The translations under genes were made by a program, and so were the position numbers. From the NCBI GenBank assembly GCA_964344965.1, contig CAYFPJ010000002.1:1068-65067 (forward strand): 64,000 nt of DNA, given 5' to 3'. Within the stretch, counting starts at the first letter, position 1; the number at the start of each line of letters is the position of its first letter. Of the stretch, positions 4,200 through 56,774 are shown piece by piece. The notes beneath the pieces were generated by a model. That model saw only the letters and a program-made list of their open reading frames with translations. It ran no database searches and was not told the origin of the DNA. The stretch is from an uncultured Gammaproteobacteria bacterium. Lineage in GTDB: Bacteria > Patescibacteriota > Patescibacteriia > Magasanikbacterales > UBA922.

Positions 4200-4348
4200 A
4201 ATAAAAGTAAATTTGGTTTAAGTAAGACTTCATCGGGCCATCCCCGCAGCAAGCTGCGGGGTATTGGCAGAAAATCTTATTTCAACCAATGTTAGTTTTC
4301 ACTTTTTCGATGCAAGCATCGAGGAATAAAACCGCTTAAAGATTAAAA
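4200..4348 (+). repeat. 149-nt structured interspersed repeat, copy A
   Basis: Near-identical to the copies at 18577, 20057, 41992 and 47828. Begins AATAAAAGTAAATTTGG and ends CCGCTTAAAGATTAAAA. Contains the hairpins CCCCGCAG-CAAG-CTGCGGGG and CGATG-CAAG-CATCG. Confidence 0.9.
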
Positions 4349-7999: not shown

Positions 8000-8074
8000 T
8001 ATATTGTGCGTAATTTTATGTATAAAGTCAAATTACGATTACTAAACATAACTGACTTAGATCATAAAACACAA

Positions 8075-8186
8075 AAACTAGGGAATAGAACACGGATGAC
8101 ACGGATCTAATGGATTGACACGGATAAAATCTATTAAAATCCGTTTGATCCGTGTGCCGAAGGCCTGTGTGCTATTCCCTAGTTTT
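8075..8186. repeat. 112-nt long hairpin with perfect 15-bp terminal inverted repeats and internal ACACGGAT direct and inverted repeats
   Basis: AAAACTAGGGAATAG...CTATTCCCTAGTTTT. The interior holds three ACACGGAT units followed by two complementary ATCCGT units. Lies between two minus-strand genes. Confidence 0.8.
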
Positions 8187-8208
8187 ATGATTCAAAGTAA
8201 TTACAAAA

Positions 8209-10164: not shown

Positions 10165-10249
10165 GAATTTTGGTAGTTCAGCTAATATTTCAAAGTATAA
10201 TTATTATAGCACATAACATATAACCTGTAACATATAACTTTCCATTGTG

Positions 10250-10933
10250 TTATGGTTCAAATACTTCCTGTACTGGATATTTGCAAAATCCCTCATGGAT
10301 TCCGTCATTGCCAAATCTTTCCAACCAAGTAGGATTGCTGGAATATTTATACATAAAACTATTTTGCAACGAAGCAACTAACCTGTGTTTGAAAGGATTT
10401 TTCAAAATGTAATTGAAATGTTTCCAGAAGTCAGTAATGTTACGGATGCAGTAATCGTGATATTGGTACCATATTTTTCTGCCTGGTGTTTGGTCTAGTT
10501 TGTTTAACTCACGAGATGAGTCTTTGTGTAGCTTACGAACGAACTCAGTTAGAACATGTTTTTCTTGCTTTGGGACGAAATTCGCTGCGCTCATTTCATC
10601 ATTCCATTCTTTATAGGAAATATTCTCTCGTCTGATAGGAATGACAGATTGAGCCACAGCGAAATCTGTCCCAGTAGGCATATACTTTTTATTAATAGAT
10701 TGCGGCAGTGAAAAAAGTATATGGTAATGATTATCTAATAACACCCATGCATACATTCTGATACTAAACCTTTCAATCGATTGACGAAAAACATTTTGCC
10801 ACAATATCTTTTTATATTCTTTTTCAAAATACTTTTTCCCCTCCCAACACCGCGCCGTCAAAAAATAAGTATGTCCTCCATAAATATGATGCGGTCTATG
10901 TAAATTCCGATTTTGTGTTTGTGACAAGACCAT
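10250..10933 (-). CDS. IS200/IS605-type HUH tyrosine transposase, REP-associated (RAYT-like)
   Basis: HUH motif LLDNHYHILF and a C-terminal YILKNPFKHRLV...YKYSS block (cf. NPVKAGLV...W.YSS of RAYTs). No TnpB partner. Confidence 0.65.
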   Translation of the reverse strand: MVLSQTQNRNLHRPHHIYGGHTYFLTARCWEGKKYFEKEYKKILWQNVFRQSIERFSIRMYAWVLLDNHYHILFSLPQSINKKYMPTGTDFAVAQSVIPIRRENISYKEWNDEMSAANFVPKQEKHVLTEFVRKLHKDSSRELNKLDQTPGRKIWYQYHDYCIRNITDFWKHFNYILKNPFKHRLVASLQNSFMYKYSSNPTWLERFGNDGIHEGFCKYPVQEVFEP

Positions 10934-17972: not shown

Positions 17973-19408
17973 TTAATAAAAATAATTTCTATCTTCTAAC
18001 TCTTCCGGCAAATAATCCTGCTCCACCTCTCCCCCAAAATCTGGATTATACTTATAATCTTTACCATATCCAATTTCCTTCATAAAGTCAGTCGGAGCAT
18101 TCCGGAGATGTAAAGGTACACCAAGATGTGAAGTATTCTTAGCATCTCTGGCCGCCCGACCATAAGCTTTGTAAAGTAAGTTTGATTTGGTCGACTTAGC
18201 ACAGTATACCACAGCCTGAGCAAGGTGGACGGTGCACTCAGGCATGCCGATCTTGTGCACTGCATCATACGCTGCGTTAGCTTGAATCATTGCTTCACTA
18301 TTGGCCATGCCGATATCTTCACAAGCGAAGCGAAGCACTCGTCTAGCCACATATAGCGGATCTGCTCCCCCTTCAAGCATCCGAGCAAGCCAATACAGCG
18401 AAGCATCTGCATCACTTCCCCGCATAGATTTATGCAAAGCTGAGATCAGATTGTAAAACTCCTCACCTTTTTTATCAAAAACTAAGTGAGTACGCTGTAA
18501 TGCTTCTTTTATATCGTCAACTGACAAGATAACGCCACCAGATTCACCCCCCCCCTATGAGGGGGAGTCGATCCCGAATAAAAGTAAATTTGGTTTAAGT
18601 AAGACTTCATCGGGCCATCCCCGCAGCAAGCTGCGGGGTATTGGCAGAAAATCTTATTTCAACCAATGTTAGTTTTCACTTTTTCGATGCAAGCATCGAG
18701 GAATAGAACCGCTTTAGATTCAATCGGGACGGAGGGGGTCTCACTGGAAGTCTTCCCAACTACGGCAAGTTCAATACCATTCAAAGCTACTCTCCCATCT
18801 TCCCCACTCAAACTTGCCAAAAATTCGATAGTCTCATTATCAATCTCGACATTATATTTCCCCAATCCTCTATCCTCATCCTCGAGAGCTTGTCTTATAA
18901 GCAGGACAATATCCTCATCACTAAGACTTTTCAAAATAAAAACTCGTGAACGTGAGAGAAGTGGACGGATGATTTCAAAAGAAGGATTTTCCGTAGTGGC
19001 TCCGATGAGTGTAACCACTCCTCTCTCAACATAAGGCAGTAATGCATCTTGCTGGGCCTTATTCCAACGATGAATCTCATCAATAAAAAGCACTGTCTTC
19101 TTATTTTCATTCTGTAACAATTCTGAAGCTTCCTTGACTGCTTTCATCAAATCTCGCTTACCGCTCTCTACTCCTGACAAAGAGACAAACTCTGAATTAG
19201 TTTGCTCAGCTATAATATTGGCGAGACTAGTCTTTCCTACCCCAGGCGGACCCCAAAAAATGATCGAAGATAATTGATCTTGCTCGACCATGCGTCTGAG
19301 TAATTTGCCTTTCCCAACAATTTCTTCTTGACCTACAAATTCATCAAAATTGCGAGGACGCATGCGGTCTGGGAGTGGTCTATTATTCTGTGGCTTTTTT
19401 TCTTTCAT
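17973..19408 (-). pseudogene. rarA: rarA/mgsA (recombination factor AAA+ ATPase) split into two ORFs (18659..19408 and 17973..18527) by an inserted copy of the 149-nt repeat
   Basis: The N-terminal ORF has the Walker A GPPGVGKTSLA and ends with repeat-encoded LDACIEKVKTNIG*. The C-terminal ORF starts at a TTG with ...FDKKGEEFYNLISALHKSMRGS..., which continues the RarA alignment with no residues missing. Confidence 0.7.
18577..18724 (+). repeat. 149-nt structured repeat, copy B (inside rarA)
   Basis: Identical over ~130 nt to the other copies, with a diverged 3' end. It is preceded by an extra C9-TATGA-G6 hairpin. Confidence 0.9.
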
Positions 19409-20090: not shown

Positions 20091-20206
20091 CGGGCCATCC
20101 CCGCAGCAAGCTGCGGGGTATTGGCAGAAAATCTTATTTCAACCAATGTTAGTTTTCACTTTTTCGATGCAAGCATCGAGGAATAAAACCGCTTAAAGAT
20201 TTAAAA
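20057..20206 (+). repeat. 149-nt structured repeat, copy C (150 nt)
   Basis: Matches the other copies. It supplies the last 19 codons (TFKSLSGFIPRCLHRKSEN*) of the upstream ORF. Confidence 0.9.
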
Positions 20207-25441: not shown

Positions 25442-25480
25442 ACTTGATATAAGGTTAATTATTAGATATAAAATTACTGA

Positions 25481-25518
25481 ATGTACGAAATTACGAACGT
25501 TACGAAATTTGCGAAACG
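25481..25518 (-). repeat. TTTCGTA-type 8-9-bp tandem repeat array (4 units), oriented toward the 25034..25441 gene
   Basis: The minus strand reads TTTCGCAAA TTTCGTAACG TTCGTAA TTTCGTACAT. Confidence 0.7.
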
Positions 25519-25526
25519 TTACTACT

Positions 25527-25600
25527 GCGATAGGATTACCGCCGAAAGGCGGTCTCTACGAACGTTGTCTGTGCCGGCCTGCCTTTCGGCAGGAATCCTA
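25527..25600. repeat. GC-rich nested hairpins between the two TTTCG arrays
   Basis: CCGCC-GAAA-GGCGG and CCTGCC-TTTC-GGCAGG enclosed by TAGGATT/AATCCTA. Confidence 0.6.
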
Positions 25601-25612
25601 ATATTTGAACCA

Positions 25613-25649
25613 CTTTCGCACCCTTCGTACTATTCGTAATTCCGTACAT
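25613..25649 (+). repeat. TTTCGTA-type tandem repeat array (4 units), plus orientation
   Basis: CTTTCGCACC CTTCGTACTA TTCGTAATT CCGTACAT. Confidence 0.65.
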
Positions 25650-25678: not shown

Positions 25679-28651
25679 CTACACCCTAAACTCACAAATA
25701 TCCCTAAAATCACATCTTCCACAAATAAATTTACTTGGCGTAGCTTCAAACTTTCGTTCGTGAATTTGCTCAATAGTTTTGGCCAATTTTCCTTTTAGCT
25801 TTTCCAGTTCTTTTTCTTTCCCGATGAATGATGTCTTTATATTATCATTTAAATAATAAAATGTTAACTTACTGGTCTCACCCACATGCTTATATTCTGG
25901 CAAAGTGCTAGCCACTATCTGATAAATCAAAAGTTGATCCTTCTCTTTACCAACTAATTTCTCTTTACTTTTTCCAGTCTTGTAATCAACAATTTCAAGA
26001 GTGCCGTCTTCCAGTTTGTCGACCCGATCAATACGGCCGGAAATTGTATAGTCCCCTACTTTTACCTTGAAACCACTTTCAAGAGAGATAGGTACATTCC
26101 AATTCCCTTCTTCAGAAGCATAAAAAACTTTTAGAATTTCTTTTCCTTTCTTATGATAATCTTCTCGCTGGCGTTTGCTCACATACCAGTCACTGATCCA
26201 CTTCTCCTCATATATTTGTAGAAGTTCTTCAAAAGACGGCACTTTGATATTGGAATCTATAAACTTATCAGCCGGTAGACCAAAAAGTGAATCCTGCTTC
26301 AAGCCATTTAATTCCTGAATCCGCTCATAAAATTTTTGCAAAGTATTGTGCATGGTCGAGCCAAAACTAAAGCTAGCACTCCCCTTGGTCGGAATTTTGA
26401 GGACATGCGCCAGCTTATACTGATACGGACAAGTCTGATAAGAACTAATCTGCGAATAAGAAAACCTCTTCGGCAAATCATAGATCACCTCACTTTCCTT
26501 TGTATCTTGAATATCCCTCTGTTGAAAAGATATGGTAACGGGTTCGTCGTTCGTCAGGAGCTTGTCCTGAGCTTGCCGAATGGATCGTTCGTCTCTCATT
26601 CCCAACTCCGCCACGAATCTACTTAATTTGGAAGAGCGTACCCCACCATAACTCTCAGCGCTCGTCAAAAAAAGTCTCTCCTTCGCCCTCGTCATCGCTA
26701 CATAAAACAGCCGTCTCTCTTCTTGATAATGATAGTCCCCTTCTGGCACAGTTTCACGAACAAGTTCTTCTGGCAGCTCAATATTGCCACCTTTGCGACG
26801 AGTAGGAAATCGCCCTTCCACACAGTTGACGACGAAAACATACTTGAATTCCAGACCCTTGGAGGCATGTACTGTCATAATGTTCACAGAGTCTGGTGTA
26901 TCGGTCGGCTGGTAGAGCTTGCCATCATCACCAGAAATGATAATTTGGTTATAAAAATCAACAAATCCAAAAACATTGGCATCCGGAATAGATTCTTGAT
27001 ATTTTTCTACAAATTCAAAAAACTGCTTGAGATGTCTGATCTCTCTTATCGTTTTTCTATCCCCATCTTCTTCTGTCTGCGTGAGGTGAGATAGATATCC
27101 ACTGTTTTCGAGAAACTCAATTAGTACTGTGGTTGGTTTCTCAAATCTGGCTCGCTTCATGCCATGGTGGATTAGTTCGATCAATTTATTACAAATTCCA
27201 ACCCCCTCCTCTGATAGCTTGAATTCTCGAGCCCGCTTCAGACCTTCGTAATATGGAATGCTTTTCTTTTTTGATAAGTACAAAATCTTCTGCATATCAT
27301 TTTCGCGCATTCCAAAAAATGGTAAACGAAGAAGGCGGTAGACTGCCACAGAATCATGAAAGTCAGCCAGCACTTTAAAAAAATTAAAGCAATCCATCAC
27401 AATCGGCTGGCGATACAATCCAGAAGAAGCCAAAAATTCGTATGGAATACCTGATTGTTCAAGGCCTTGGATAAACGGACTAGCATGACTATTGGCTCGG
27501 ACGAGGATAGCAACATCATCCCACACAAACTCTTTATCTTCTTTTTGCAATTTCAAAATTTCACTAACAACAGATCTGACTTCGCTTTCTAAATTAAGTT
27601 CATTAACATGCAAAACTGATGGTTGGGAACTATATTCTCCTGATTCTTTATTCCTAATTCCTGATTCTAGTCTCTTATCAATATCAAGCTTCACCTCAAG
27701 ACGATCCGGATTATTATTCTGAATAAGCTGGTAAGCAGAATCAAGGATCTTCTGATTGGAGCGATAATTTTCTGTTAGCACTATTTCTTTTCCTTTTGGA
27801 AAGTCATCTTTGAATCTAAGGATATTGGAAACACTGGCTCCACGAAAGGCATAAACAGACTGATCATCGTCCCCGACCACAGTGAGCTGACTATTGCCAG
27901 CCAGCAATTTTACCAGCTCATACTGAGCATAGTTGACGTCTTGAAATTCATCAACCAGAATATATTTAAATCTTTTTTGCAAACTTTCTAAAATTAATTT
28001 CCTTTTTTTGAGTAGTCCTACTGTATAAAAAATTAGATCGCCAAAGTCTAACGCATTATGCCTGAGCAGAAGCTGATTGTAGCTGTGATAAGCATTGGCG
28101 AGCTCTGCTATCTTGCTTTTCTCTTCTTCGGCATTGTCATGATCTAGTTGTAAATTTTTGGCATATTCCAGATATTCTGCCGGACTGATCAGCTCGTCTT
28201 TACATTTGGAAAAATGAGAGATAAGGGCATAGATATTACGACTGGGATTTCCAAGTGGGCGATAATAATCAAGGTTGAAATCATACAAATTTTCTTTCAT
28301 CAGAAGCCAGGCATCTGTCCCTGTCATTAGTTTGAACTGATTTGGTAAACCCACATCAAGACCATAATTCTCCAAAATATTTTGGCAAAAAACATGAAAA
28401 GTAGAAATCTGTAAATCTAGGTAACCAATATCAAGGAGCACATCAACCCGCTCCTGCATCTCTTCTGCTGCTTTGTCTGTAAAAGTAAGGGCGAGAATCT
28501 CTTCTGGTTTCACTCCTTTTTCCTTTACCAAATAACTAATCTTCTTGGTAATCACAGTCGTCTTCCCAGTCCCCGCTCCAGCAACAATAAGAAGAGGACC
28601 GCCGACATATTCGACGGCCTGTTTTTGTGATTTATTGAGTTTTTTTGTCAT
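25679..28651 (-). CDS. UvrD/PcrA-like superfamily-1 helicase fused to a C-terminal PD-(D/E)XK Cas4/AddB-like nuclease domain
   Basis: N-terminal helicase motifs (GAGTGKT, VDEFQD, TVHASKGLEF). The C-terminal region carries the nuclease motifs and a Cys cluster (CPYQYK...CGRCDFRDIC). Confidence 0.8.
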   Translation of the reverse strand: MTKKLNKSQKQAVEYVGGPLLIVAGAGTGKTTVITKKISYLVKEKGVKPEEILALTFTDKAAEEMQERVDVLLDIGYLDLQISTFHVFCQNILENYGLDVGLPNQFKLMTGTDAWLLMKENLYDFNLDYYRPLGNPSRNIYALISHFSKCKDELISPAEYLEYAKNLQLDHDNAEEEKSKIAELANAYHSYNQLLLRHNALDFGDLIFYTVGLLKKRKLILESLQKRFKYILVDEFQDVNYAQYELVKLLAGNSQLTVVGDDDQSVYAFRGASVSNILRFKDDFPKGKEIVLTENYRSNQKILDSAYQLIQNNNPDRLEVKLDIDKRLESGIRNKESGEYSSQPSVLHVNELNLESEVRSVVSEILKLQKEDKEFVWDDVAILVRANSHASPFIQGLEQSGIPYEFLASSGLYRQPIVMDCFNFFKVLADFHDSVAVYRLLRLPFFGMRENDMQKILYLSKKKSIPYYEGLKRAREFKLSEEGVGICNKLIELIHHGMKRARFEKPTTVLIEFLENSGYLSHLTQTEEDGDRKTIREIRHLKQFFEFVEKYQESIPDANVFGFVDFYNQIIISGDDGKLYQPTDTPDSVNIMTVHASKGLEFKYVFVVNCVEGRFPTRRKGGNIELPEELVRETVPEGDYHYQEERRLFYVAMTRAKERLFLTSAESYGGVRSSKLSRFVAELGMRDERSIRQAQDKLLTNDEPVTISFQQRDIQDTKESEVIYDLPKRFSYSQISSYQTCPYQYKLAHVLKIPTKGSASFSFGSTMHNTLQKFYERIQELNGLKQDSLFGLPADKFIDSNIKVPSFEELLQIYEEKWISDWYVSKRQREDYHKKGKEILKVFYASEEGNWNVPISLESGFKVKVGDYTISGRIDRVDKLEDGTLEIVDYKTGKSKEKLVGKEKDQLLIYQIVASTLPEYKHVGETSKLTFYYLNDNIKTSFIGKEKELEKLKGKLAKTIEQIHERKFEATPSKFICGRCDFRDICEFRV

Positions 28652-28656
28652 AAGTT

Positions 28657-28696
28657 ATGTGCGAAATTACGAAAGCTGCGAAATGTACGAAAAAAA
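28657..28696 (-). repeat. TTTCGTA-type tandem repeat array (4 units) ending 5 nt before the helicase-nuclease ATG
   Basis: The minus strand reads TTTCGTACA TTTCGCAGC TTTCGTAA TTTCGCACAT AACTT ATG. Confidence 0.7.
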
Positions 28697-28760: not shown

Positions 28761-28796
28761 TTTCGTAACTTTCGTACTGTTCGTAATTTCGCACAT
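28761..28796 (+). repeat. TTTCGTA-type tandem repeat array (4 units), upstream of the hup promoter
   Basis: TTTCGTAAC TTTCGTACTG TTCGTAA TTTCGCACAT. Confidence 0.7.
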
Positions 28797-29434: not shown

Positions 29435-29549
29435 CGGGCTCCATTTTCGCTTCGCTCAAATTATGCCCGGCAGGCCCGGGGCTTTCTGGGCAAAAAAATA
29501 ATAATTGGCCTGCCCGGCGCAATCACGACAGAGTCGGGATGGAGACGGG

Positions 29550-29621
29550 TAGCCCCAAGGGGAATCGAACCCCTGTTCCCAGGATGAGAACCTGGTGTCC
29601 TAACCACTAGACGATGGGGCC
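29550..29621 (-). tRNA. tRNA-Glu (anticodon CTC); CCA not encoded
   Basis: Manual fold: acceptor GGCCCCA/TGGGGCT (G1-U72), anticodon stem CCAGG/CCTGG with loop TTCTCAT, T-arm GGGG-TTCGATT-CCCC. Confidence 0.8.
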
Positions 29622-29680
29622 TTATTCAACAATTAACATTTTACAATTGACAATTAACTTTTGACTAATGAGACGAAAAG

Positions 29681-29709
29681 ATTATATACGATTTAACCAA
29701 ATTAGTCAA
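29681..29709 (-). promoter_or_regulatory. consensus sigma70 promoter of the tRNA-Glu/tRNA-Met operon
   Basis: The minus strand reads TTGACT -17 nt- TATAAT; the predicted TSS is ~50 nt upstream of tRNA-Glu. Confidence 0.6.
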
Positions 29710-29790
29710 TAATTACGTTCTGTATCACTATTTTAGATACGTTATTGACAAAATCAATAGTATATAAGATTGGAATTAAAAAAATGTTTT

Positions 29791-29818
29791 AGTGCTTAGG
29801 TGTTTAAGTGTTCAAGTG
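29791..29818. repeat. AGTGYTTAR octamer tandem repeats directly after the ftsI stop codon
   Basis: AGTGCTTAGG TGTTTAAG TGTTCAAG TG; as RNA this reads CACUUGAACACUUAAACACCUAAGCACU and is G-poor. Confidence 0.7.
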
Positions 29819-29823
29819 AAAAA

Positions 29824-31599
29824 CTAGCGGACCGGCGGCACTTGATAATATTCCAAAATAGATTTAGCAATATCTCCAAACACTGGGGCCGCTGTGCTAG
29901 AAGAATATTTTCTCTTTGGTTTTTCAAACTTAACTATCATCACAAACTTAGGATCATCTACCGGAGCAAATCCAATGAAAGAATGATTGGTATCTTCTGT
30001 ATATCCTCCCCGGCCAGCAATCTGAGCTGTCCCAGTCTTTCCCGCTACATAATGACCATTCACACCAGCCAAGCCAGCCTGACCACTATCCACAACTTTC
30101 ACAAGCATGGCTCCCAAAAGAGAGGCGCTTTTTTTGTCCAAAATTTCCCCAGTAGACTCTGGATGAGTCTGGTCTATCCTACCATCTGCGTATTCTATTC
30201 TCTCTACCACATAGGGTTTCATCATCTCCCCTCCATTGGCAATTGCTCCGAATGCAGTAACTGCCTGAAGAGGTGTAGCTGTAAGTCCCTGACCAAAAGA
30301 AGCAGTCGCCGTGTAGCAATCAAAACGATCTTTGCTATTTTCATAAAGAGAATCTATTGTACCAGAAGATTCACTATCAAGCTCAATACCTGTCTTCACC
30401 CCAAAACCAAATTTTTCAATATATTCAATAAATTTTTCTTTACCAACCTCTTCAGCCACATGGACCATTCCCGTATTAATAGAATTTTCCAACACACCTG
30501 TCATGGTCTGATCTTTGTATATTTTTTCTCCAGCATTTTTGATTGGCTTTTGACATACGCCATCTCTACTACCAGAATCATAAAAATATGTATCTGGAGT
30601 GATAACCTCAACATCTAGAGCGGCAGCCATAGCAATTGGTTTGAAAATTGAACCAGGCTCATATGGCGTGAAAATACTAGAATTATTATAAAAATTTACG
30701 TCATCAATGTTCCCATAATTATTGAGTTCAAAGTCTGGCAAAGAACACATCGTTCGAATTGCACCAGTACTAGGGTCTAAAATAATAAGAGATGCTCCGC
30801 TTGCACCATATTCTTCCATACCTTGACGCAAACGCTCACAAGCCTTGAATTGGAGTGTCCTATCAATAGTAAGGAAGATATCTGCCCCATCTTCAGCTGG
30901 CTCGAACGACCGACCAGCTAGTGGGATGAAGCTCCCTGCCAACCCTTTCTTTCCTTCAAGAAACCCTCCCTTACCGCTGAGCTCCTGCTGCCAATACCCT
31001 TCTATACCATAACGTCCAATATCATTACCGTCTTCATCTTTACCCACAAAACCTATCACATGAGACCCGAGATGTCCTTCTGGATAGTAGCGTTCTTGTC
31101 GACGAACAAATCCGATTCCTTCCAAATCTTTTTCTTTCAAAATATCAACCACACTTTCTTCCACTTTTTTCTCTATCGGTTCGTAGGGGTCTGTACGCTT
31201 ATTTAGTTGTAAATAAAGTTGGAATTTTTGCTCGTCATCATAGCCAAACACTTCAGACAGTACTTCTGAAATACTCTCGGCAGTTTCATCATCCTCAATA
31301 TCACGAGTATCTGCAAATACTGTAAAAAAATCCTTATTGAGAGCAGCAGGATAAGCTTCTCCAGTATCATCATCTTCTAGAAAAAAAATCTCCCCTCTCT
31401 CGGGAAAGAGCTGCTCATAGAGTGTATGAGAGCCAGCAGCAAGAGCTGTATAAAATCCATGCTGGATGACCATTAAGACAAAAAGGCGAGCTATCACAGC
31501 AAAGGTAAAGATGCTCAAAAAAACAACCGCGATTCTAAGACGTTTGTCTGTGGGATTAGAGAGATCTTCTTTGTATTTTCTTTTTTTATTTTTATACAC
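29824..31599 (-). CDS. ftsI: peptidoglycan D,D-transpeptidase (PBP2/FtsI-type class B penicillin-binding protein)
   Basis: N-terminal TM segment, PBP dimerisation domain, and transpeptidase motifs SIFKP (SxxK), SIN-like and KTGTA. Confidence 0.85.
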   Translation of the reverse strand: MYKNKKRKYKEDLSNPTDKRLRIAVVFLSIFTFAVIARLFVLMVIQHGFYTALAAGSHTLYEQLFPERGEIFFLEDDDTGEAYPAALNKDFFTVFADTRDIEDDETAESISEVLSEVFGYDDEQKFQLYLQLNKRTDPYEPIEKKVEESVVDILKEKDLEGIGFVRRQERYYPEGHLGSHVIGFVGKDEDGNDIGRYGIEGYWQQELSGKGGFLEGKKGLAGSFIPLAGRSFEPAEDGADIFLTIDRTLQFKACERLRQGMEEYGASGASLIILDPSTGAIRTMCSLPDFELNNYGNIDDVNFYNNSSIFTPYEPGSIFKPIAMAAALDVEVITPDTYFYDSGSRDGVCQKPIKNAGEKIYKDQTMTGVLENSINTGMVHVAEEVGKEKFIEYIEKFGFGVKTGIELDSESSGTIDSLYENSKDRFDCYTATASFGQGLTATPLQAVTAFGAIANGGEMMKPYVVERIEYADGRIDQTHPESTGEILDKKSASLLGAMLVKVVDSGQAGLAGVNGHYVAGKTGTAQIAGRGGYTEDTNHSFIGFAPVDDPKFVMIVKFEKPKRKYSSSTAAPVFGDIAKSILEYYQVPPVR

Positions 31600-31640
31600 A
31601 AAAACAAATTCCTATTATCTAGAAAATGGACGAATGCAAA

Positions 31641-31714
31641 TTCTTTTTTGCTTTTTTGGTGGAGCCAACAGTCTGCTCCTCTGCGATTTTGGGCCATCAA
31701 AAAAGCAAAAAGAA
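31641..31714. other. conserved-loop / variable-stem hairpin, copy 1
   Basis: Stem TTCTTTTTTGCTTTTTTG / CAAAAAAGCAAAAAGAA encloses GGAGCCAACAGTCTGCTCCTCTGCGATTTTGGGCC. Confidence 0.7.
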
Positions 31715-31746
31715 TTTGGTAGTTCATTTTACAATTTTTAAGCAAA

Positions 31747-32859
31747 CTATATCTTCCGATGTCTCCCAGTCCTATTCTCTGCCACTTCTTCTGTAATAAG
31801 TCCATCTTTCAATAACTGCTTTATAGAGTTATCCATAGTAATCATCCCCTCTTTCGCTCCGGTCTGAATAGAGCTCTGGATCTGAGCAATATTATTCTCT
31901 CTAATCAAATTACTAATTGCTGGAGTGTTGACCAAAATTTCTCTAGCAGCAACCCTCTTACCATCTGCAGCAGGCACTAGCTGCTGAGCCACCACACAAC
32001 GAAGAACAGCAGAAAGCTGAATCAAGACCTGCTTTTGCTTTGCCCCCTCAAAAACATCTACTATACGCTCTACAGCTTCAGCAGCAGTAGAAGTATGAAG
32101 AGTAGAAAATACCAGGTGACCAGTCTCCGCAGCAGTGAGGACAGTGGCAATAGTCTCTGGATCACGCATTTCTCCTACAAAGACGACATTGGGGTCTTGC
32201 CGAAGGACATGCTTGAGAGCAGAATCAAAAGATCTGGTATCCACCCCCACTTCACGCTGCTCAATAAGACTTTCTTTATCTTCGAAATTAAACTCTATTG
32301 GGTCTTCAATCGTAATGATGTGAGACTTCCTGGTCTTGTTGATCTCTTCAATCATACTGGCGATAGTAGTAGACTTACCATGCCCTGTCGGACCTACCAC
32401 AAGCACCAGACCGTCTAGAAGGTTGATACAATTCTTGAGAGCTGGCTCAAAACGAAGATCTTCTGGAGTAGGAATGTCCTTGGGGATAAGACGAGCAGCC
32501 AGACCGATCTTACCGTCTTGTCTGTGAACATTGACTCGAAAACGAACTTCACCCACCTCATATCCTAGATCCAACTCAGCCTGGTCAATAAATCTCTTTT
32601 TTTGTTTGGTAGAGATAATATCCATGATATAACCCTCTAGCTCATTGGCAGGCAAAGGACCCTCTTCCCAATACTGAAGCACTCCTTCAATACGTATTGC
32701 TGGCTTTTCATCTCCTACAAGATGTAAATCTGACGCACCACTGTCAATAGCAACTTGAAAATATGATTTTAGTGATTTCATAGATAAAGGCTTAAAAATG
32801 CTTGAAAAGCTAAGAAGGCTTGAAAGACTTAATATCCTTTCTAGTTTAGCACAAAACAA
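31747..32859 (-). CDS. pilT: type IV pilus retraction ATPase PilT (probable start at 32781, MKSLKSY...)
   Basis: Walker A GPTGHGKST and the PilT-specific HLVFSTLHT and AIRNLIRE-like (ISNLIRENN) motifs. Confidence 0.85.
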   Translation of the reverse strand: MFCAKLERILSLSSLLSFSSIFKPLSMKSLKSYFQVAIDSGASDLHLVGDEKPAIRIEGVLQYWEEGPLPANELEGYIMDIISTKQKKRFIDQAELDLGYEVGEVRFRVNVHRQDGKIGLAARLIPKDIPTPEDLRFEPALKNCINLLDGLVLVVGPTGHGKSTTIASMIEEINKTRKSHIITIEDPIEFNFEDKESLIEQREVGVDTRSFDSALKHVLRQDPNVVFVGEMRDPETIATVLTAAETGHLVFSTLHTSTAAEAVERIVDVFEGAKQKQVLIQLSAVLRCVVAQQLVPAADGKRVAAREILVNTPAISNLIRENNIAQIQSSIQTGAKEGMITMDNSIKQLLKDGLITEEVAENRTGRHRKI

Positions 32860-33076
32860 AACTACTAGCTAACCTATCATTTTAGAATCCACATGGGGGT
32901 TTGGGGGAGAAGCTGTTTGAGCCCTGTTGCTAAGTGTAGATGATATTAATAGCACCTCACGGGCGAGTTCTTCTCCCCCAACACTTTTTGTTACTTTTTG
33001 GTGTCAAAAAGTAAGTGGAGAATATATTAACGTCGGGAGTTTGAGAGGTGGGTCGGAGGGAAAGACTTCATGATAA

Positions 33077-33107
33077 AAAAATCCATCATGTAGATGGATT
33101 TTTTTAA
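33077..33107 (-). terminator. bidirectional rho-independent terminator after the YtxH-like gene
   Basis: AAAAAAATCCATC-ATGTA-GATGGATTTTTTT. Confidence 0.75.
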
Positions 33108-33113
33108 TATTAA

Positions 33114-33440
33114 CTATTTCTTCCTACCACCAATTTCTCTCTGTATACTTTTCCACTGCGAGCTGACCAGCTTCACTACCATATTTTTAACATTATCAGC
33201 CAAACCATTTTGAATAGCATATTTGTCCACAGTCTCTCTGACCAAAGTAACATATTTATTCTTGGTCATCTTACCAAATTGATCAGAGGTGGCAACCCTC
33301 TCTTTGACATCAGCATATACATCGGCCGCATAGTCAAAAATTTGGTCACGCACTTCCCTGCCCTTCTTAGTAGTAGAGAGCCACATAAGTCCTGCTCCCA
33401 AGAGACCACCAAATACTAAGCCTTTTTTAAATTTACCCAT
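33114..33440 (-). CDS. YtxH-like small membrane-anchored protein
   Basis: N-terminal GLVFGGLLGAGLMWL TM segment followed by KKGREVRDQI, as in the YtxH family. Confidence 0.45.
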   Translation of the reverse strand: MGKFKKGLVFGGLLGAGLMWLSTTKKGREVRDQIFDYAADVYADVKERVATSDQFGKMTKNKYVTLVRETVDKYAIQNGLADNVKNMVVKLVSSQWKSIQREIGGRKK

Positions 33441-33463
33441 ATTTTTTAGAATATAAAACTAAA

Positions 33464-33576
33464 CTCTTCGTCATTGCGAGGAGTCTGAAAGAACGACGTG
33501 GCAATCTTAGTGTTTGTAAATAAAACAATGAGATTGCCACGTCGTGCTTGCTTCGCGCACTCCTCGCAATGACGAG
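33464..33576. repeat. 113-nt long two-segment hairpin between co-directional genes
   Basis: CGTCATTGCGAGGAGT/ACTCCTCGCAATGACG and ACGACGTGGCAATCT/AGATTGCCACGTCGT, both perfect arms; GC-rich relative to the flanks. Confidence 0.75.
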
Positions 33577-33627
33577 ATTGTAATATTATGAACTCAAAAC
33601 ATTTCACTATTTAGTATAGCAAATCCT

Positions 33628-34806
33628 CTAAGCCCCGGCAAGATCCTCGTACAAAAGTTCCAAGATATCCACAATAGGGCCCCAAGAATATTTCCTCTCC
33701 ACCGCCAATCTAACATCTTGACCAAACCCAAAACGATCCACACTCCCAGAAAAATACTCTACTATTCTGTCTGCTAAATCTGAAGCATCTCCAGGATTGA
33801 AGACTACACCACCATCTGCAGCCACAGTCCTCACTCCTGGCAAATTGCTTGCAATCACAGGTACTCCACTAGACATAGACTCTAAGAGGACCATTCCAAA
33901 AGCTTCTCCTTGATGAATAGAAGGCAAGACTGTCAGGTCAGCCATATTGTAATAATATGGCAACTCCTCCTGACTCACTCTACCCACAAAACGGACAGAT
34001 CTAGATAATCCAAAAATTTTAGCTCTAGACTCAAAATCAGCTCGCAGCTCACCATCTCCCACAAAAACTGTCTGGATTTCCAAATCCATTTTTTTTAATA
34101 AACGCAAAGAATCTAAAAAAACTGGCACTCCTTTGAAGTAGTGGGCTGCATCCATGCCCCCCACAAACAATAAGAGTGGCATATCTGGATTCAAACTGTG
34201 ACGCAAAAAAAGGGCCTCTGGCTTACCTACACGAGGTCTAAAAGTGCTAGTATTAACACCAAAAGGAAGCTCTGCCCATTTATTTTTTTGGGTGAAAAAA
34301 ATGTTGGCAGCACTGCTGTGTTCTATATAATCAAATGAACTAGCTATGATAAGATCTGCAACATCAAGAATTTTCGGCATCCAGTATTTGGCGTAATATT
34401 TGAAAATCAGACCTTTCCATCCAGGTCCGCGTGTGTCCATATGATAAGTGACAACGAGAGGCTTGTCTGGATTACGAAGTTTCCACTTTCGGACCAAGTT
34501 GGCTGTCCCAAAAAATGGATAGTGTAGATGGACTAAATCAAAACGGTCTAACTCTTTTCTTACCTGCGGCAATCTGGCTGCCTTACCGTATTGAAAGCTT
34601 GGCTTTAGAAATTTGGCATATTCGATCTGTTCTTGAATTTCTGGCTCATAGTCTGATTCTTTTTGGGGCAGTTTTTCTTGAAATGTCGGTGTCAATACTT
34701 CCACCTCATGCCCACGTTTGGCCAGTTCGCTAATCGTCTGTAGCACAACATTGCCCATGCCGCCGTAGTAGGGTGGGTAGCTGCAGACTATATGGGCGAT
34801 ACGCAT
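33628..34806 (-). CDS. GT4-family glycosyltransferase
   Basis: N-terminal MRIAHIVCSYPPYYGGMGN and the C-terminal EGFGMVLLE.. E-x7-E region. Confidence 0.85.
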   Translation of the reverse strand: MRIAHIVCSYPPYYGGMGNVVLQTISELAKRGHEVEVLTPTFQEKLPQKESDYEPEIQEQIEYAKFLKPSFQYGKAARLPQVRKELDRFDLVHLHYPFFGTANLVRKWKLRNPDKPLVVTYHMDTRGPGWKGLIFKYYAKYWMPKILDVADLIIASSFDYIEHSSAANIFFTQKNKWAELPFGVNTSTFRPRVGKPEALFLRHSLNPDMPLLLFVGGMDAAHYFKGVPVFLDSLRLLKKMDLEIQTVFVGDGELRADFESRAKIFGLSRSVRFVGRVSQEELPYYYNMADLTVLPSIHQGEAFGMVLLESMSSGVPVIASNLPGVRTVAADGGVVFNPGDASDLADRIVEYFSGSVDRFGFGQDVRLAVERKYSWGPIVDILELLYEDLAGA

Positions 34807-34812
34807 ACAAAT

Positions 34813-35148
34813 TTATTTTTTGTCTATCTCTTCAAGAGAGTCCTGACGTATAACCTTGGTAAAATCACGTTTCAGACCCTCCATCTTAACATGAAGCTTG
34901 AAGAGAAGATAAAAGATAGCAGCAATTGAAAGATAAATTACCAAATCAGCTCCACGACCTATACCAATGTAGTCAGCAAGACGCTGGACAATATTCGGCC
35001 AGACAACCACTACTGCCACCACCATCCAAAATAAAATCCAAAATAAAGCCCCCTTCGGACCAAGTAAATCATCTTCTTTTCTCTTCAAAACCCCCACAAT
35101 GGCAAAAAGACAAAACAAAACCAACAAAACTTGAAATACAACTAACAT
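34813..35148 (-). CDS. DUF2304-family small membrane protein (GT2 partner)
   Basis: Three TM segments; sits upstream of a DPM1-like GT2, the usual genomic context of this family. Confidence 0.5.
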   Translation of the reverse strand: MLVVFQVLLVLFCLFAIVGVLKRKEDDLLGPKGALFWILFWMVVAVVVVWPNIVQRLADYIGIGRGADLVIYLSIAAIFYLLFKLHVKMEGLKRDFTKVIRQDSLEEIDKK

Positions 35149-35175
35149 ACTGCAGAAATTTAAAACTTAAGAATA

Positions 35176-35835
35176 TTAATTCAAAAATTTACCAAAAAAC
35201 AAATCTTTCAAAACTTTCAAACCACCCACCGCTCGTTGTCCATATTCATGATACGTCACTTTGACTGGAAATTCAATATATTTCAAACCATGCCGTTTTA
35301 TCAATTCAGGAATCTCTGAAGCATGAGCCATCCTGTCTTGTTTAATTCTAATTTTATCAAGAGCATTTTTATTCAAAATACGAAAGCCATTATGGACATC
35401 AGTGAGCTTTATCCCCCCAAAAGCACGACTGACCAATCTACCAAGTGGCAATAAAATATGTTTTTTGAACCAAGGAATACGAGAACGGTCATCCAAAAAA
35501 CGAGAACCAAGTAAAACATCCGCCTCCTTCTCTCTCATTTTCTGTAATGCTGGGTTGATATCCAAAGCATCAAATTGATTGTCACCATCAAAATGAAGTA
35601 CATATTCTGCTCCATGCTTTCTTGCATATTCATGACCTGTCTCCAGAGTAGCCCCTTGGCCACGATTGATCTTGTGCCGTATCACCACAGCTCCAGCCTC
35701 TCTAGCTTGCTTTCTCGTACCATCCTTGGAACAATCATCTACAACAACAATCTCATCAACATGTCCAAAAAGGCTCCGCACAACGGAACCTATTCTTTCT
35801 TCTTCATTATATGCCGGAACTATAGCAAGAAACAT
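35176..35835 (-). CDS. GT2-family glycosyltransferase (polyprenyl-phosphate sugar synthase-like)
   Basis: AIVPAYNEEERI...VVDDCSKDGT and the DGD motif (HFDGDNQ). Confidence 0.85.
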   Translation of the reverse strand: MFLAIVPAYNEEERIGSVVRSLFGHVDEIVVVDDCSKDGTRKQAREAGAVVIRHKINRGQGATLETGHEYARKHGAEYVLHFDGDNQFDALDINPALQKMREKEADVLLGSRFLDDRSRIPWFKKHILLPLGRLVSRAFGGIKLTDVHNGFRILNKNALDKIRIKQDRMAHASEIPELIKRHGLKYIEFPVKVTYHEYGQRAVGGLKVLKDLFFGKFLN

Positions 35836-35903
35836 ATTTCAAAATACACCAATTAAGCCAGAGCAGTTAACTACCATATGAGAGGTAAATAATTCCAATT
35901 CAA

Positions 35904-35957
35904 AAGTGTTTAAGTGTTTAAGTGTTTAAGTGCTAAAGTGCTAAAGTGCTAAAGTGC
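35904..35957. repeat. AGTGYTTAA/AGTGCTAAA octamer tandem repeats (3+3 units) directly after the epimerase stop codon
   Basis: (AGTGTTTA)x3 (AGTGCTAA)x3 AGTGCC; as RNA this is (CACUUUAG)x3 (CACUUAAA)x3 and is G-poor. Confidence 0.8.
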
Positions 35958-35962
35958 CAAAA

Positions 35963-36973
35963 TCACGTCATCATCTCCTTATTGGCAATAGTATAGTTGA
36001 TGGTCCTCTTCAGACCATCATCAATCCTAATCAATGGAATCCATCCTAACCCTTCTTTAGCGCGAGTCAGATCTGGCATTCCTTTGGCAGTAAGAAACTC
36101 TAATGGGTCTTCAAATACCACTCTAGAATTGGAACCTGTCATAGCAATAATCTTTTCAGCAATAGCAGACATCTTATGGATTTCATCATGACCCAAATTT
36201 ACTAAGTATATCTCAGGACCAGCATGCATCAGGCGAACCAATCCGTCAACAGTATCTGAGACAAAACAAAGTGACTGGACAAGCGTATCATCACCATAGA
36301 TCACCAGGTCCCGCCCGTCAAGTGCATCTAGGATAAAATCTGGTATCAAGAGACCATCACGAAGCTTCATACGCGGTCCGTAAGTAGTGAAAACTCTGGC
36401 AATTTTAGCATCAAGACCATAAACTTGTCTATAGGTCTCGACACAAGTCTCAGCAAACCTTTTTCCCTCATCATAAGAGCCTCTTGGAGAGAGGTGATTG
36501 ACCTGACCTTCGTCAGACTCAGTAAAAAACCTTTTTTCTGGAGAGGAGGGACCATAGACTACAGAGCTGGAAGTGAAAACATACTTGGAGCGATACTTTA
36601 CAGCCAGATCTAGAGTGTTGAGCATTGCCCTAGAGTTGGCATGCAAGGAGTGTAGTTTTAAATCTTCAAAATTCTTAGGGCTGGTAGGACAAGCCAAATG
36701 ATAAATTTCTTGTATACCTTGAAATTTCAATTTGAATTTTTCTAACTCTGGAAAATCTTTTAGATCAATAGGAAAATTTACGTCATACTTTATAAATTCA
36801 AAGTCAGGATATTGCAACAGATGTTCAACATTTTGGATAGTAGAATTGGACAGATCATCCATACAAATCACATTGGCTTCTCTCAAAAGACGCTCACATA
36901 GATGAGACCCTAAGAAGCCAGCCCCACCAGTCACTAAGACATTTTTCTTTTCAAAAATAGGTGTTTGATCCAT
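35963..36973 (-). CDS. NAD-dependent epimerase/dehydratase (UDP-glucuronate decarboxylase / UXS-like)
   Basis: VLVTGGAGFLGSHL Rossmann motif and a YxxxK-containing SDR core; overall UXS-like. The match is to the family only. Confidence 0.65.
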   Translation of the reverse strand: MDQTPIFEKKNVLVTGGAGFLGSHLCERLLREANVICMDDLSNSTIQNVEHLLQYPDFEFIKYDVNFPIDLKDFPELEKFKLKFQGIQEIYHLACPTSPKNFEDLKLHSLHANSRAMLNTLDLAVKYRSKYVFTSSSVVYGPSSPEKRFFTESDEGQVNHLSPRGSYDEGKRFAETCVETYRQVYGLDAKIARVFTTYGPRMKLRDGLLIPDFILDALDGRDLVIYGDDTLVQSLCFVSDTVDGLVRLMHAGPEIYLVNLGHDEIHKMSAIAEKIIAMTGSNSRVVFEDPLEFLTAKGMPDLTRAKEGLGWIPLIRIDDGLKRTINYTIANKEMMT

Positions 36974-41991: not shown

Positions 41992-42140
41992 AATAAAAGT
42001 AAATTTGGTTTAAGTAAGACTTCATCGGGCCATCCCCGCAGCAAGCTGCGGGGTATTGGCAGAAAATCTTATTTCAACCAATGTTAGTTTTCACTTTTTC
42101 GATGCAAGCATCGAGGAATAAAACCGCTTAAAGATTAAAA
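41992..42140 (+). repeat. 149-nt structured repeat, copy D
   Basis: Full-length match to the other copies; lies between convergent genes. Confidence 0.9.
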
Positions 42141-45443: not shown

Positions 45444-46835
45444 CTATTGTCGTCCTACCAAAAATGGGCTGCCTACTGCTACTATATCAAATCCAGCCTT
45501 ATTCAAATCACCATAACGATGCTGCAACATCCTCCGTCCATCCATGATGAGAGGTTTATCTCCTTGACACTCTTTCGAGAGTAAATCTGCTAGCCCTCGA
45601 AATTGTGGCCAATCTGTGGAGATAATCACCACATCAGCATTTTCTATTGCTTTTTCCTCTTCTGTGGAATAGACAATTTGATCAGAAGCTGGAAACTGTT
45701 GTCTAAACATGGGTACAGCGACAGGATCAAATATTTGAATTTTTCGGACATTTTTTTCTTGTAGAAATCGAACTATATCAATACTTGGTGAATTACGAAT
45801 ATCATTGGTATCTTGTTTGAAAGCAGTACCCATTATTGCGACAGTCTTTCCTGACCAGTCCAGCTCTGCTTCTTTTTCTGCTCTATTCAAAAATAATTCT
45901 AATTGTCGTTTGTTGGCTAGATAGACTTCACTAACTAGCGAGGCACTCTGTCCAGCAGTCTGTAGCTGATGAGCCAAAGAACGCGCATCCTTGATAAAAC
46001 AGCTACCTCCAGCATAAAGGCTGTCATAAAATCCCCAGCCTGAAATCCTAGACTCTGTAGTGATGACTTTCCGCAAATTCTCAAATTGAACATCTGAAAA
46101 CGTCTCGCTGGTACGACCAATGACATCAAAACAGAGTTGTAATTTTGCAAATAAATAAAAATTTGCCAGTAGTTTTCCTGCTGCTGCTTCTTTTGGATTA
46201 ACTTCGATGTAAGCAATACCAGAAGAATCATAAAATCGGCGATACAGTTGGCGCATCACCTGGAAATCCTTTTCTTCCCAAGCACCGACCACCACCCGAT
46301 CAGGATGAAGTGATCCTTCGATCGCTTTTCCCTCTACCAGGAATTCGGGGTTAGATACTACGCCATAATTTTTTACCCCAGACTCGTCCATGATACGCTT
46401 GGTCTCATCAACCATCTCTACCGGCACAGTACTTTTGTTGACGATTACAATATATTTTTCTTGTTTCCCTTTATTTCTCTTGGTCAAAGCTTGAGATAGC
46501 TGCTCGGCAGCCATATTGTAATACTTGAGGTCACTCTCCCCTGTCTCACCAATTTCTGGGGTAGGCAGGCACATCAATATGATATCACACTGGTCAAGAA
46601 AATTTTCAACTTTGCCATAGTCTGTCGTGAACTCGATACGTTCCTTATTGCGGATCAAAAGATCAGCCAGACCTTCTTCAAATAGGCAGGACTGAATAAT
46701 ATCTCGATCATTTGAGCCGAGTTTTTTTATTTTATTTTCATCGATGTCATAGACCAGAACCTGGTGGCCGCTGTCAGCCGAGACTGCTGCTGAGCAGGCT
46801 CCCACAAAGCCAGATCCGATGTAGAGAATGTTCAT
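45444..46835 (-). CDS. ugd: UDP-glucose 6-dehydrogenase
   Basis: NILYIGSGFVGACSA Rossmann motif and catalytic-Cys region (GGSCFIKD); full length. Confidence 0.85.
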   Translation of the reverse strand: MNILYIGSGFVGACSAAVSADSGHQVLVYDIDENKIKKLGSNDRDIIQSCLFEEGLADLLIRNKERIEFTTDYGKVENFLDQCDIILMCLPTPEIGETGESDLKYYNMAAEQLSQALTKRNKGKQEKYIVIVNKSTVPVEMVDETKRIMDESGVKNYGVVSNPEFLVEGKAIEGSLHPDRVVVGAWEEKDFQVMRQLYRRFYDSSGIAYIEVNPKEAAAGKLLANFYLFAKLQLCFDVIGRTSETFSDVQFENLRKVITTESRISGWGFYDSLYAGGSCFIKDARSLAHQLQTAGQSASLVSEVYLANKRQLELFLNRAEKEAELDWSGKTVAIMGTAFKQDTNDIRNSPSIDIVRFLQEKNVRKIQIFDPVAVPMFRQQFPASDQIVYSTEEEKAIENADVVIISTDWPQFRGLADLLSKECQGDKPLIMDGRRMLQHRYGDLNKAGFDIVAVGSPFLVGRQ

Positions 46836-46838
46836 AAT

Positions 46839-46875
46839 TATGTACGAAATACGAAAAATTCGAAAATTACGAAAA
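46839..46875 (-). repeat. TTTCGTA-type tandem repeat array (4 units) ending 4 nt before the ugd ATG
   Basis: The minus strand reads TTTTCGTAA TTTTCGAAT TTTTCGTA TTTCGTACAT AATT ATG. Confidence 0.7.
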
Positions 46876-47849: not shown

Positions 47850-47976
47850 GTAAGACTTCATCGGGCCATCCCCGCAGCAAGCTGCGGGGTATTGGCAGAA
47901 AATCTTATTTCAACCAATGTTAGTTTTCACTTTTTCGATGCAAGCATCGAGGAATAAAACCGCTTAAAGATTAAAA
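47828..47976 (+). repeat. 149-nt structured repeat, copy E
   Basis: Full-length match; separates two GC-richer ORFs. Confidence 0.9.
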
Positions 47977-52831: not shown

Positions 52832-52902
52832 AATAGTAGGATATTTTTGTCAGCAACAGTCTGCTCCTTTTAGATTTTGATGGCTAAAATATCCTACTAT
52901 TT
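52832..52902. other. conserved-loop / variable-stem hairpin, copy 2
   Basis: Stem AATAGTAGGATATTT / AAATATCCTACTATT encloses TTGTCAGCAACAGTCTGCTCCTTTTAGATTTTGATGGCTAA. Confidence 0.7.
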
Positions 52903-56700: not shown

Positions 56701-56774
56701 AAAATGAATTGATTTCTTGGACAGCAACAGTCTGCAAGAGGTGTGATTTTGCTGGCTAAAAAATCAATTCATTT
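56701..56774. other. conserved-loop / variable-stem hairpin, copy 3
   Basis: Stem AAAATGAATTGATTT / AAATCAATTCATTT encloses CTTGGACAGCAACAGTCTGCAAGAGGTGTGATTTTGCTGGCTAAA. Confidence 0.7.

Follow-up and report, generated by a model that had tools for sequence, protein, structure and literature searches.

The window studied here, a stretch of 64,000 nt from an uncultured bacterium of the Patescibacteriota (Magasanikbacterales in GTDB; contig CAYFPJ010000002.1 of assembly GCA_964344965.1, positions 1,068 to 65,067), contains two runs of the 8-base repeat CACTTNAN, each placed right after a stop codon, and both runs are real. As the best explanation, which we hold tentatively and with somewhat less than even confidence, we suggest that these arrays are solo-arm copies of a lineage-restricted, dispersed intergenic repeat that is built from CAC octamers, has grown by slippage and does not terminate transcription. 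Such a repeat would resemble repetitive extragenic palindromic (REP) sequences and miniature inverted-repeat transposable elements (MITEs). The first array, site 1, follows the gene of a class-B penicillin-binding protein (PBP), and the second, site 2, follows a gene of the short-chain dehydrogenase/reductase (SDR) family. The arrays and the stop codons before them are as follows.

29779..29818, minus strand: site 1 array, CACTTGAA CACTTAAA CACCTAAG CACTAAAA and then degenerate CATTTTTT (4-5 degenerate octamers)
29819..29826, minus strand: PBP stop codon TAG (29826-29824) and 5-nt spacer TTTTT
35901..35956, minus strand: site 2 array, three copies of CACTTTAG, three copies of CACTTAAA and one CACTTTTG (7 octamers, 56 nt)
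35957..35965, minus strand: SDR stop codon TGA (35965-35963) and 6-nt spacer TTTTGG

The site 2 array starts 6 nt past the SDR stop on the coding strand, and Tandem Repeats Finder (TRF) reported a period of 8, 7.4 copies, 92% matches and a score of 69, which is an unambiguous tandem repeat. The first-pass annotation of the window had described arrays after these two stop codons, and its description was right to within one base at both sites. It had placed site 2 at 35904-35957; the plus-strand register of three AGTGTTTA and three AGTGCTAA units is exact at 35905-35952 and the 6-nt gap is correct, while the start was off by one. At site 1 the repeat is present right after the stop as described, with a gap of 5 nt and not 6. 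Taken alone, site 1 is a weak repeat (TRF score 31; period-8 score 11.5 against a threshold of 11), and it draws its weight from having the motif in common. When the tandem positions in the window were checked, the phased pattern was found at these two post-stop places only. Within the window, the single octamer AGTGYTNA occurs about as often as chance predicts (21 times against 18.7 expected), and a DNA uptake sequence was rejected on this ground.

The relatives compared here are syntenic contigs, labelled with L numbers, that were obtained from a metagenome scan with the PBP protein (55-76% identity). The close set comprises 266 kb of non-redundant sequence with an FtsI-like (PBP) identity of at least 55%, and the distant set comprises 601 kb with a PBP identity of at most 42%. 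Additional loci of 130 kb were anchored on Elp3 homologs (69 kb) or on homologs of a REP-associated tyrosine transposase (RAYT; 61 kb). The closest relative, with 76% PBP identity, is L123/L124/L140. Arrays of period 7-9 as strong as these numbered 30 in 266 kb and about 1.6 in shuffled sequences, a roughly 19-fold excess, and 21 of the 30 were intergenic.

The units of the family follow the consensus octamer C-A-C-(T/C)-T-N-A-N. When we built a logo from 37 distinct units, C1 was found in 35, A2 in all 37, C3 in 32 and A7 in 34, with T or C at position 4, T at position 5 and free choice at positions 6 and 8; the register was set by positions 1-3, so that their conservation is partly circular, and A7 played no part in it. 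A search for three successive CAC-N5 units in the close set gave 11 matches, 8 of them intergenic, against about 1-2 in all expected by chance. The pattern (CAY-N3-A-N)x2-CAY gave 9 matches in the same 266 kb, all at gene ends or in intergenic regions, and none in the 601 kb of distant relatives, and these counts support the earlier suggestion that the repeat is lineage-specific. The 69 kb of Elp3-anchored loci gave no intergenic match to this pattern.

The same motif was found in relatives in the same strand sense, 0-10 nt past stop codons: at 5 nt in L135, at 6-10 nt at two sites in L132 and at 1 nt in L140. Four family copies lie in 19 kb of L132 sequence, further copies were found in L128, L135, L140 and L210, and the window has two. 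New cases include those of L132 at 13654, in a convergent intergenic region with an intrinsic terminator directly 3', of L132 at 480-563 and of L140 at 10668-10759. Period-7 relatives of the motif, CAYRTAA, were observed at 10205-10238 of the window, at 9244 of L208, at 8450-8497 of L206 and at 1008-1042 of L150. The window array of this kind runs antisense to the genes on either side and coincides in part with a promoter-like site, TTACAG-16-TATAAT with an upstream TGTGC; the orthologous intergenic region of L208 has a similar array, and the L206 and L150 copies are on the sense strand at stops.

The element is often a palindrome in relatives, in which a direct CAC arm at the stop codon has its inverted GTG counterpart at the start codon that follows. 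The direct arm in L140, CACTTGAA CACCTAAA CACTTTAG, lies 1 nt past the stop, and 9 nt separate the end of the inverted arm from the next ATG; the RNA fold has an energy of -34.4 kcal/mol (z -4.56), and the arms agree at the variable positions too. Complementarity at the free positions was also found in L132 at 470-575 (-34.0 kcal/mol, z -4.57). The palindrome in L135 is weaker (z -2.29), and only the CAC/GTG cores are symmetric in L128 (z -1.58).

The genes and signals adjacent to the two arrays, all of the genes being on the minus strand, are given below in the order of transcription around each site.

29824..31599, minus strand: class-B PBP gene, a 591-aa open reading frame (ORF) with Pfam Transpeptidase and PBP_dimer domains, upstream of site 1
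29681..29709, minus strand: near-consensus sigma-70-type promoter TTGACT-17-TATAAT, serving tRNA-Glu and tRNA-Met
29548..29621, minus strand: tRNA-Glu (CUC), the first gene downstream of site 1
35963..36973, minus strand: SDR-family sugar-nucleotide epimerase/dehydratase gene, a 336-aa ORF, upstream of site 2
35836..35900, minus strand: rest of the intergenic region between site 2 and the next ATG, 65 nt with two AATTGG motifs
35176..35835, minus strand: glycosyltransferase gene (GT2, PpgS-like), the next gene 3' of site 2

The GT2 gene is followed by DUF2304 and GT4 genes, and the block S8 protease - SDR - GT2 - DUF2304 - GT4 - YtxH - PilT - PBP is kept in the syntenic relatives. The labels ftsI and UXS-like of the first-pass annotation were approximate: the class-B PBP and SDR classes stand, and both proteins fall under every NCBIfam cut-off. 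The 591-aa PBP ORF is SpoVD/PBP2/FtsI-like, and UXS-like is a plausible label for the 336-aa SDR ORF but is not established. The space that separates the tRNA promoter from the start of tRNA-Glu is filled by about 4-5 AACAATT-type heptamers (29628-29666). The best named homologs of the Elp3-like protein of the window are from Candidatus Magasanikbacteria (Patescibacteria), with 65-72% identity. An Rfam scan of the window at gathering thresholds gave two tRNAs and nothing else. An alternative genetic code with TGA as sense is unneeded, because translation table 11 gives long and dense ORFs.

Comparison of orthologous sites showed that presence of the element differs between close relatives. At the 3' end of the PBP gene, the closest relative has no array and has the same tRNA promoter 16 nt past the stop, and this promoter, whose -35 hexamer is 69 nt downstream of the end of site 1 in the window, is kept in relatives without the array. 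L135 has TAA GGAAA CACTTCAC CACTGAAT CACCTGAC CACTCAAC there, an array 5 nt past the stop, L132 has GATTATCT GACCACCT GACCATCT AAACATTT abutting a canonical intrinsic terminator, and L150 has a period-7 version, TATCACA TATCACG TAGCACA TAACATA. The SDR-GT2 junction is array-free and 36-50 nt long in L190, L126, L155 and L129. L128 has CACCTTAT CACTTTGT CACGT at this junction, 10 nt past the SDR stop, followed by a GAATTGG tail as at site 2, and the number of units is 7 in the window and 3 in L128.

Operon junctions that in other relatives measure 6-50 nt were also found to contain the element. The window, L123, L129 and L155 have a DUF2304-GT4 junction of 6-11 nt; this junction holds a CAC palindrome overlapping the ORF end in L132, a long and unrelated palindrome in L128, heptamers of the form TGTTACR in L135 and a 400-nt insert in L190. 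Such repeated invasion of junctions by different elements indicates that the arrays were inserted or expanded, and that they are not signals kept by conservation.

Independent, neutral growth could also give arrays of this kind. According to this explanation, which we regard as improbable, each array is a variable-number tandem repeat (VNTR) that arose by slippage from a chance seed and survived right past a stop codon because nothing else in a compact intergenic region is free of constraint, and the similarity between the arrays is a coincidence. Arrays of many other units (TACGAA, AAATCAT, TTTAGAC, AAGATTNA, AACAATGC and others) fill the intergenic regions of this lineage and often abut stops or starts, CACTT-N3 arrays occur in many phyla at at least 120 loci, and the CAC arrays resemble VNTRs in being head-to-tail and intergenic, in having blocks of identical units (3+3 at site 2) and in differing in repeat number at a homologous junction. 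However, they differ from VNTRs in that the same core occurs at at least 5 non-orthologous loci in at least 5 genomes and is absent from distant relatives, in their inverted partner arrays, which are true duplicates, and in showing no polymorphism in three assemblies. The order of unit variants is moreover common to copies, as seen when site 1 is compared with the L140 arms and when the L132 copies are compared among themselves. The L132 copies 13 kb apart have AGCACGATA(G/A)CACT in common, which independent slippage from chance seeds does not explain.

Among the CACTT-N3 arrays (L003-L122), the paired ones had the order (AAGTG-N3)n...(CACTT-N3)n in 14 cases and the reverse order in 1, among the matches listed. 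In L012, a terminator-like hairpin with octamer arms (3690-3870; -67.9 kcal/mol, z -11.8) directly follows a stop and has a U-rich tail.

Based on these observations, we suggest the following course for the dispersed repeat. New copies would be duplicated or inserted into the boundary directly 3' of an ORF, which is free of constraint, and the arrays would then expand and contract through slipped-strand mispairing, and decay. They would probably be transcribed within the 3' untranslated region or the intercistronic RNA, where a paired element may form an intercistronic hairpin, and a solo arm, as at both window sites, may be an unstructured, tolerated spacer rather than a terminator. The conserved CAC...A core would imply that a factor specific to the lineage recognises it, be it a mobilising enzyme or a binding protein.

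The likeness to REP sequences, bacterial interspersed mosaic elements (BIMEs) and REP doublets forming hairpins (REPINs) is that all are short (about 25-60 nt) dispersed repeats, found only in intergenic regions, typically just 3' of ORFs or inside operons, that occur as singlets or as inverted doublets forming long hairpins, with a consensus specific to the species or lineage and a presence that varies among relatives. Of the features that define MITEs, namely terminal inverted repeats, a target-site duplication and a related autonomous element, inverted arms are seen in L140, L132 and L135. In contrast to REP sequences, the CAC unit is a tandem octamer array and not a single imperfect palindrome, the arrays are without a conserved GTAG-type 5' tetranucleotide, and the window copies are both singlets. 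The window further encodes a RAYT homolog, a point of likeness for which we examined the REP/RAYT relationship.

10250..10933, minus strand: RAYT homolog, Pfam Y1_Tnp above cut-off, PDB 4er8_A TnpArep

This protein scores 78.1 bits against NCBIfam NF047646 (cut-off 80) and has the HUH (HYH) and Tyr motifs. Its gene contains an in-frame palindromic insert at 10571-10673 and is syntenic with methyltransferase and Elp3 genes in relatives.

Several results weigh against a dispersed REP/MITE-like repeat. The RAYT homolog, like its L214 and L215 homologs, is flanked by GACAAAC...GTTTGTCAYTCC hairpins and by no CAC octamers, and since this is a different hairpin repeat, the CAC arrays are not the flanking REPs of the window RAYT, a role that we rejected. 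No mobilising enzyme or related transposase was found, nor a pair of filled and empty sites with exact boundaries, and no target-site duplication was clearly readable in the copies of relatives. The 64-kb window holds just 2 family copies, for which no inverted partner was found, so that both are solo arms. In the 61 kb of RAYT-anchored loci, one more array (L210/L211) lies in a divergent promoter region, as the sole exception to the post-stop position. Site 1 and site 2 are each identical in two other assemblies, and array copy number did not vary among the ERR2281800, ERR2281801 and ERR2281803 assemblies, all of one study; hypervariability of the arrays was rejected because every other assembly with the flanking genes has them unchanged. 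Finally, 4-5 solo CAC arms adjoin stops against 0 GTG arms. Simple palindrome decay would not lead one to expect this, and the bias hints at a role or origin of its own for the sense-strand CAC array. Our confidence is limited because neither a mobilising factor nor an insertion signature was found, the dispersed repeat does not account for this excess of solo CAC arms, and only 64 kb of the genome was read.

The same bias bears on a further possibility, that the CAC array is a signal at ORF 3' ends for a factor of the lineage, either a periodic binder of single-stranded RNA or a cooperative DNA binder that forms a roadblock. The CAC-only solo arms at stops, the core common to several genomes and the occupancy of terminator positions suggest such a signal, which we nevertheless consider quite unlikely.

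The first-pass annotation had proposed one known factor, Rho. It had noted that the mRNA strand carries G-poor CACUUNAA repeats right after the two stops and that neither site has a hairpin terminator nearby, and both observations were confirmed, the first also in relatives: the arrays have 5-9% G against a sense-strand intergenic background of 17.4% G and 17.3% C, and no G+C-rich stem-loop with a T run was found at either locus. When the folding of the two regions was compared with shuffled sequences, the z values were +1.09 and -0.70, and both are unstructured. On this basis the arrays had been read as Rho utilisation (rut) sites, which would load Rho once the ribosome leaves at the stop, so that factor-dependent termination replaces the hairpin. 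Besides being G-poor, unstructured and 5-6 nt past stops on the transcript without a nearby intrinsic terminator, the solo arrays are always on the sense strand, and no 60-nt window of that strand has less G than site 1, which shares the minimum. The frequencies of CAC, ACA, AAC and CTT are among the best descriptors separating classes of Rho-dependent terminators in an E. coli model (PMC6144790), a further point of agreement.

The proposal does not hold up in composition or in placement, and we consider it very unlikely. A canonical rut site requires 60-80 nt of single-stranded RNA with an excess of C over G, in which linkers of 9-13 nt lie between the 5'-YC dimers bound in the primary clefts (PMC6144790). 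The arrays differ in being nearly without YC dimers (none over 66 nt at site 2 and two over 44 nt at site 1), in being G-poor without being C-rich (C 21-23%), in having a period of 8 and not a YC spacing of 11-15 nt, and in being 40-56 nt long against a footprint of 60-80 nt. When the 60-nt windows of each strand were ranked by C>G, neither array was in the top twelve. The YtxH-PilT intergenic region at 32860-33113 contains the strongest intergenic coding-strand C>G stretches (C 0.37-0.38, G 0.05-0.08) and is far more rut-like than either array. As for placement, the solo arrays of L132 lie 0-3 nt before canonical intrinsic terminators, where Rho entry has no room to act, and site 2 and the DUF2304-GT4 copy of L132 lie inside operon junctions without a downstream promoter, where termination would silence genes. 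The closest relative is without an array after its PBP gene, yet has the same tRNA promoter, and inverted, G-rich arms exist too. The CACTT arrays across phyla were 19 sense and 28 antisense (by crude ORF calls, among the matches listed), and without a cross-phylum sense bias the idea of a G-poor mRNA does not generalise. A tblastn search with E. coli Rho gave no match in the window or the fetched loci, a coverage too small to inform on the rho gene, and literature searches on Rho in Patescibacteria and the candidate phyla radiation gave nothing useful.

A promoter role for site 2 was rejected, as a sigma-70-like site was not found; the region from site 2 to the GT2 ATG has neither a sigma-70-like promoter nor a terminator. 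The TGGCAC at the start of site 2 lacks, by eye, the GG/GC spacing of a sigma-54 promoter. The resemblance of GCUCUUUAAC to boxA, GCACUUUAGC, was considered and dropped, since the tRNA promoter follows site 1 and does not precede it, and no precedent is known for seven tandem boxA copies.

We also considered that the arrays are binding sites for a lineage-specific protein, a binding-site array having been the other suggestion of the first-pass annotation. One dimer or domain would bind per 8-nt unit, and the protein might recognise DNA (ribbon-helix-helix (RHH) type) or single-stranded RNA of the 3' untranslated region (OB-fold or KH). In the DNA variant, a cooperative RHH-type binder would make the array a roadblock, an operator, or a nucleoid or centromere site. 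Each unit has indeed a core and a spacer, with CAC and A7 conserved and positions 6 and 8 free, and both direct and inverted orientations are seen. The CAC/GTG units of L128 hold their 8-nt phase across a central CACGTG despite poor pairing (z -1.58 as above), which suggests symmetry at the level of the motif over base pairing. Known arrays of this kind include the 8-bp metboxes of MetJ and the ACTC boxes of ParG with their 4-bp spacers. The omega/ParB protein of pSM19035 places one dimer on each of 7-10 contiguous non-palindromic heptads, 5'-WATCACW-3', which may be direct or inverted (PMC9499535). The period-7 units of L150 read TATCACA, TATCACG and TAGCACA. The CAC arrays are like RHH arrays in their contiguous 7-8-bp non-palindromic repeats with a core A-N-C-A-C plus spacer, in having four or more per site (7 and 4-5 here), in occurring as direct and inverted units, phased direct-then-inverted in L128, and in the period-7 versions of L150 and L206. 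They differ in lying off promoters, in 3' flanks and convergent regions, and in having inverted arms 20-45 bp apart. There is no promoter overlap at site 2, site 1 ends upstream of the tRNA promoter, and two solo arrays lie between stop and terminator in convergent intergenic regions, which offer no promoter for a bound protein to control. A scan of about 40 window proteins revealed no RHH or other DNA-binding gene. The presence of the arrays is patchy among close relatives, and the complementarity of the L140 and L132 arms at free positions is better fitted by duplication or base pairing. Considering both sides, we regard a protein-binding array as a serious alternative, though an unlikely one.

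The arrays might finally serve as back-up translation stops, given that 8 is not a multiple of 3 and three units close every frame. Sense-strand TAA, TAG or TGA is contained in 27 of 32 units (counted by eye), and all frames are closed within 28-30 nt past both stops, where the median of the window is 67 nt. This distance is, however, at about the 10th percentile of ordinary window genes, AT-rich sequence carries stops regardless, and the L128 and L135 units are often without stops. The CAC core and the inverted arms are also left unexplained, and we give this function hardly any credence.

The window also contains other dispersed repeat families, which together with the RAYT homolog form a genome context in favour of a dispersed repeat. 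One is a TACGAA family with a 9-nt period, found at 25471-25522, about 25600-25640, 28657-28692, 28761-28791 and 46847-46875. Two inverted pairs of these arrays bracket an AddA-like helicase-nuclease gene (25679..28651), one pair flanking a promoter-like stretch with its proximal arm ending 5 nt before the ATG, and 45444..46835 has one array 11 nt ahead of its ATG. These nonamer arrays were rejected as a family in common with relatives, being present in the window genome only and absent from the loci of all relatives.

Another is a REP/MITE-like element of about 80 nt with the hairpin CCCCGCAGCTTGCTGCGGGG, present in five intergenic copies (4242-4261, 18619-18638, 20099-20118, 42034-42053 and 47870-47889). 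The copy at 18528-18658 splits a RarA/MgsA gene, intact in relatives, into an AAA part (18659..19408) and an MgsA_C part (17973..18527). Long AT-rich palindromes around an identical loop, GCAGACTGTTG, occur in three intergenic regions (31666-31676, 52854-52864 and 56725-56735) and form another hairpin family. CACGGAT-type direct and inverted repeats were observed at 8090-8125, inside a palindrome AACTAGGGAATAG ... CTATTCCCTAGTT of the intergenic region 8000-8208.

If the CAC arrays were a signal for a lineage factor, they would be a new factor-dependent signal for 3'-end formation, insulation or processing and not junk repeats, and a factor marking gene ends would exist in a lineage whose transcription termination is unstudied. 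If they are copies of a dispersed REP/MITE-like repeat, as we tentatively suggest, very small Patescibacteria genomes would carry several fast-evolving intergenic repeat families, one of which consists of tandem octamers that are able to pair into long hairpins and that invade operon junctions of a few bases. This would bear on assembly breaks in metagenome-assembled genomes and on the prediction of operons and terminators in candidate-phyla genomes, and also on the origin of non-coding DNA in streamlined genomes.

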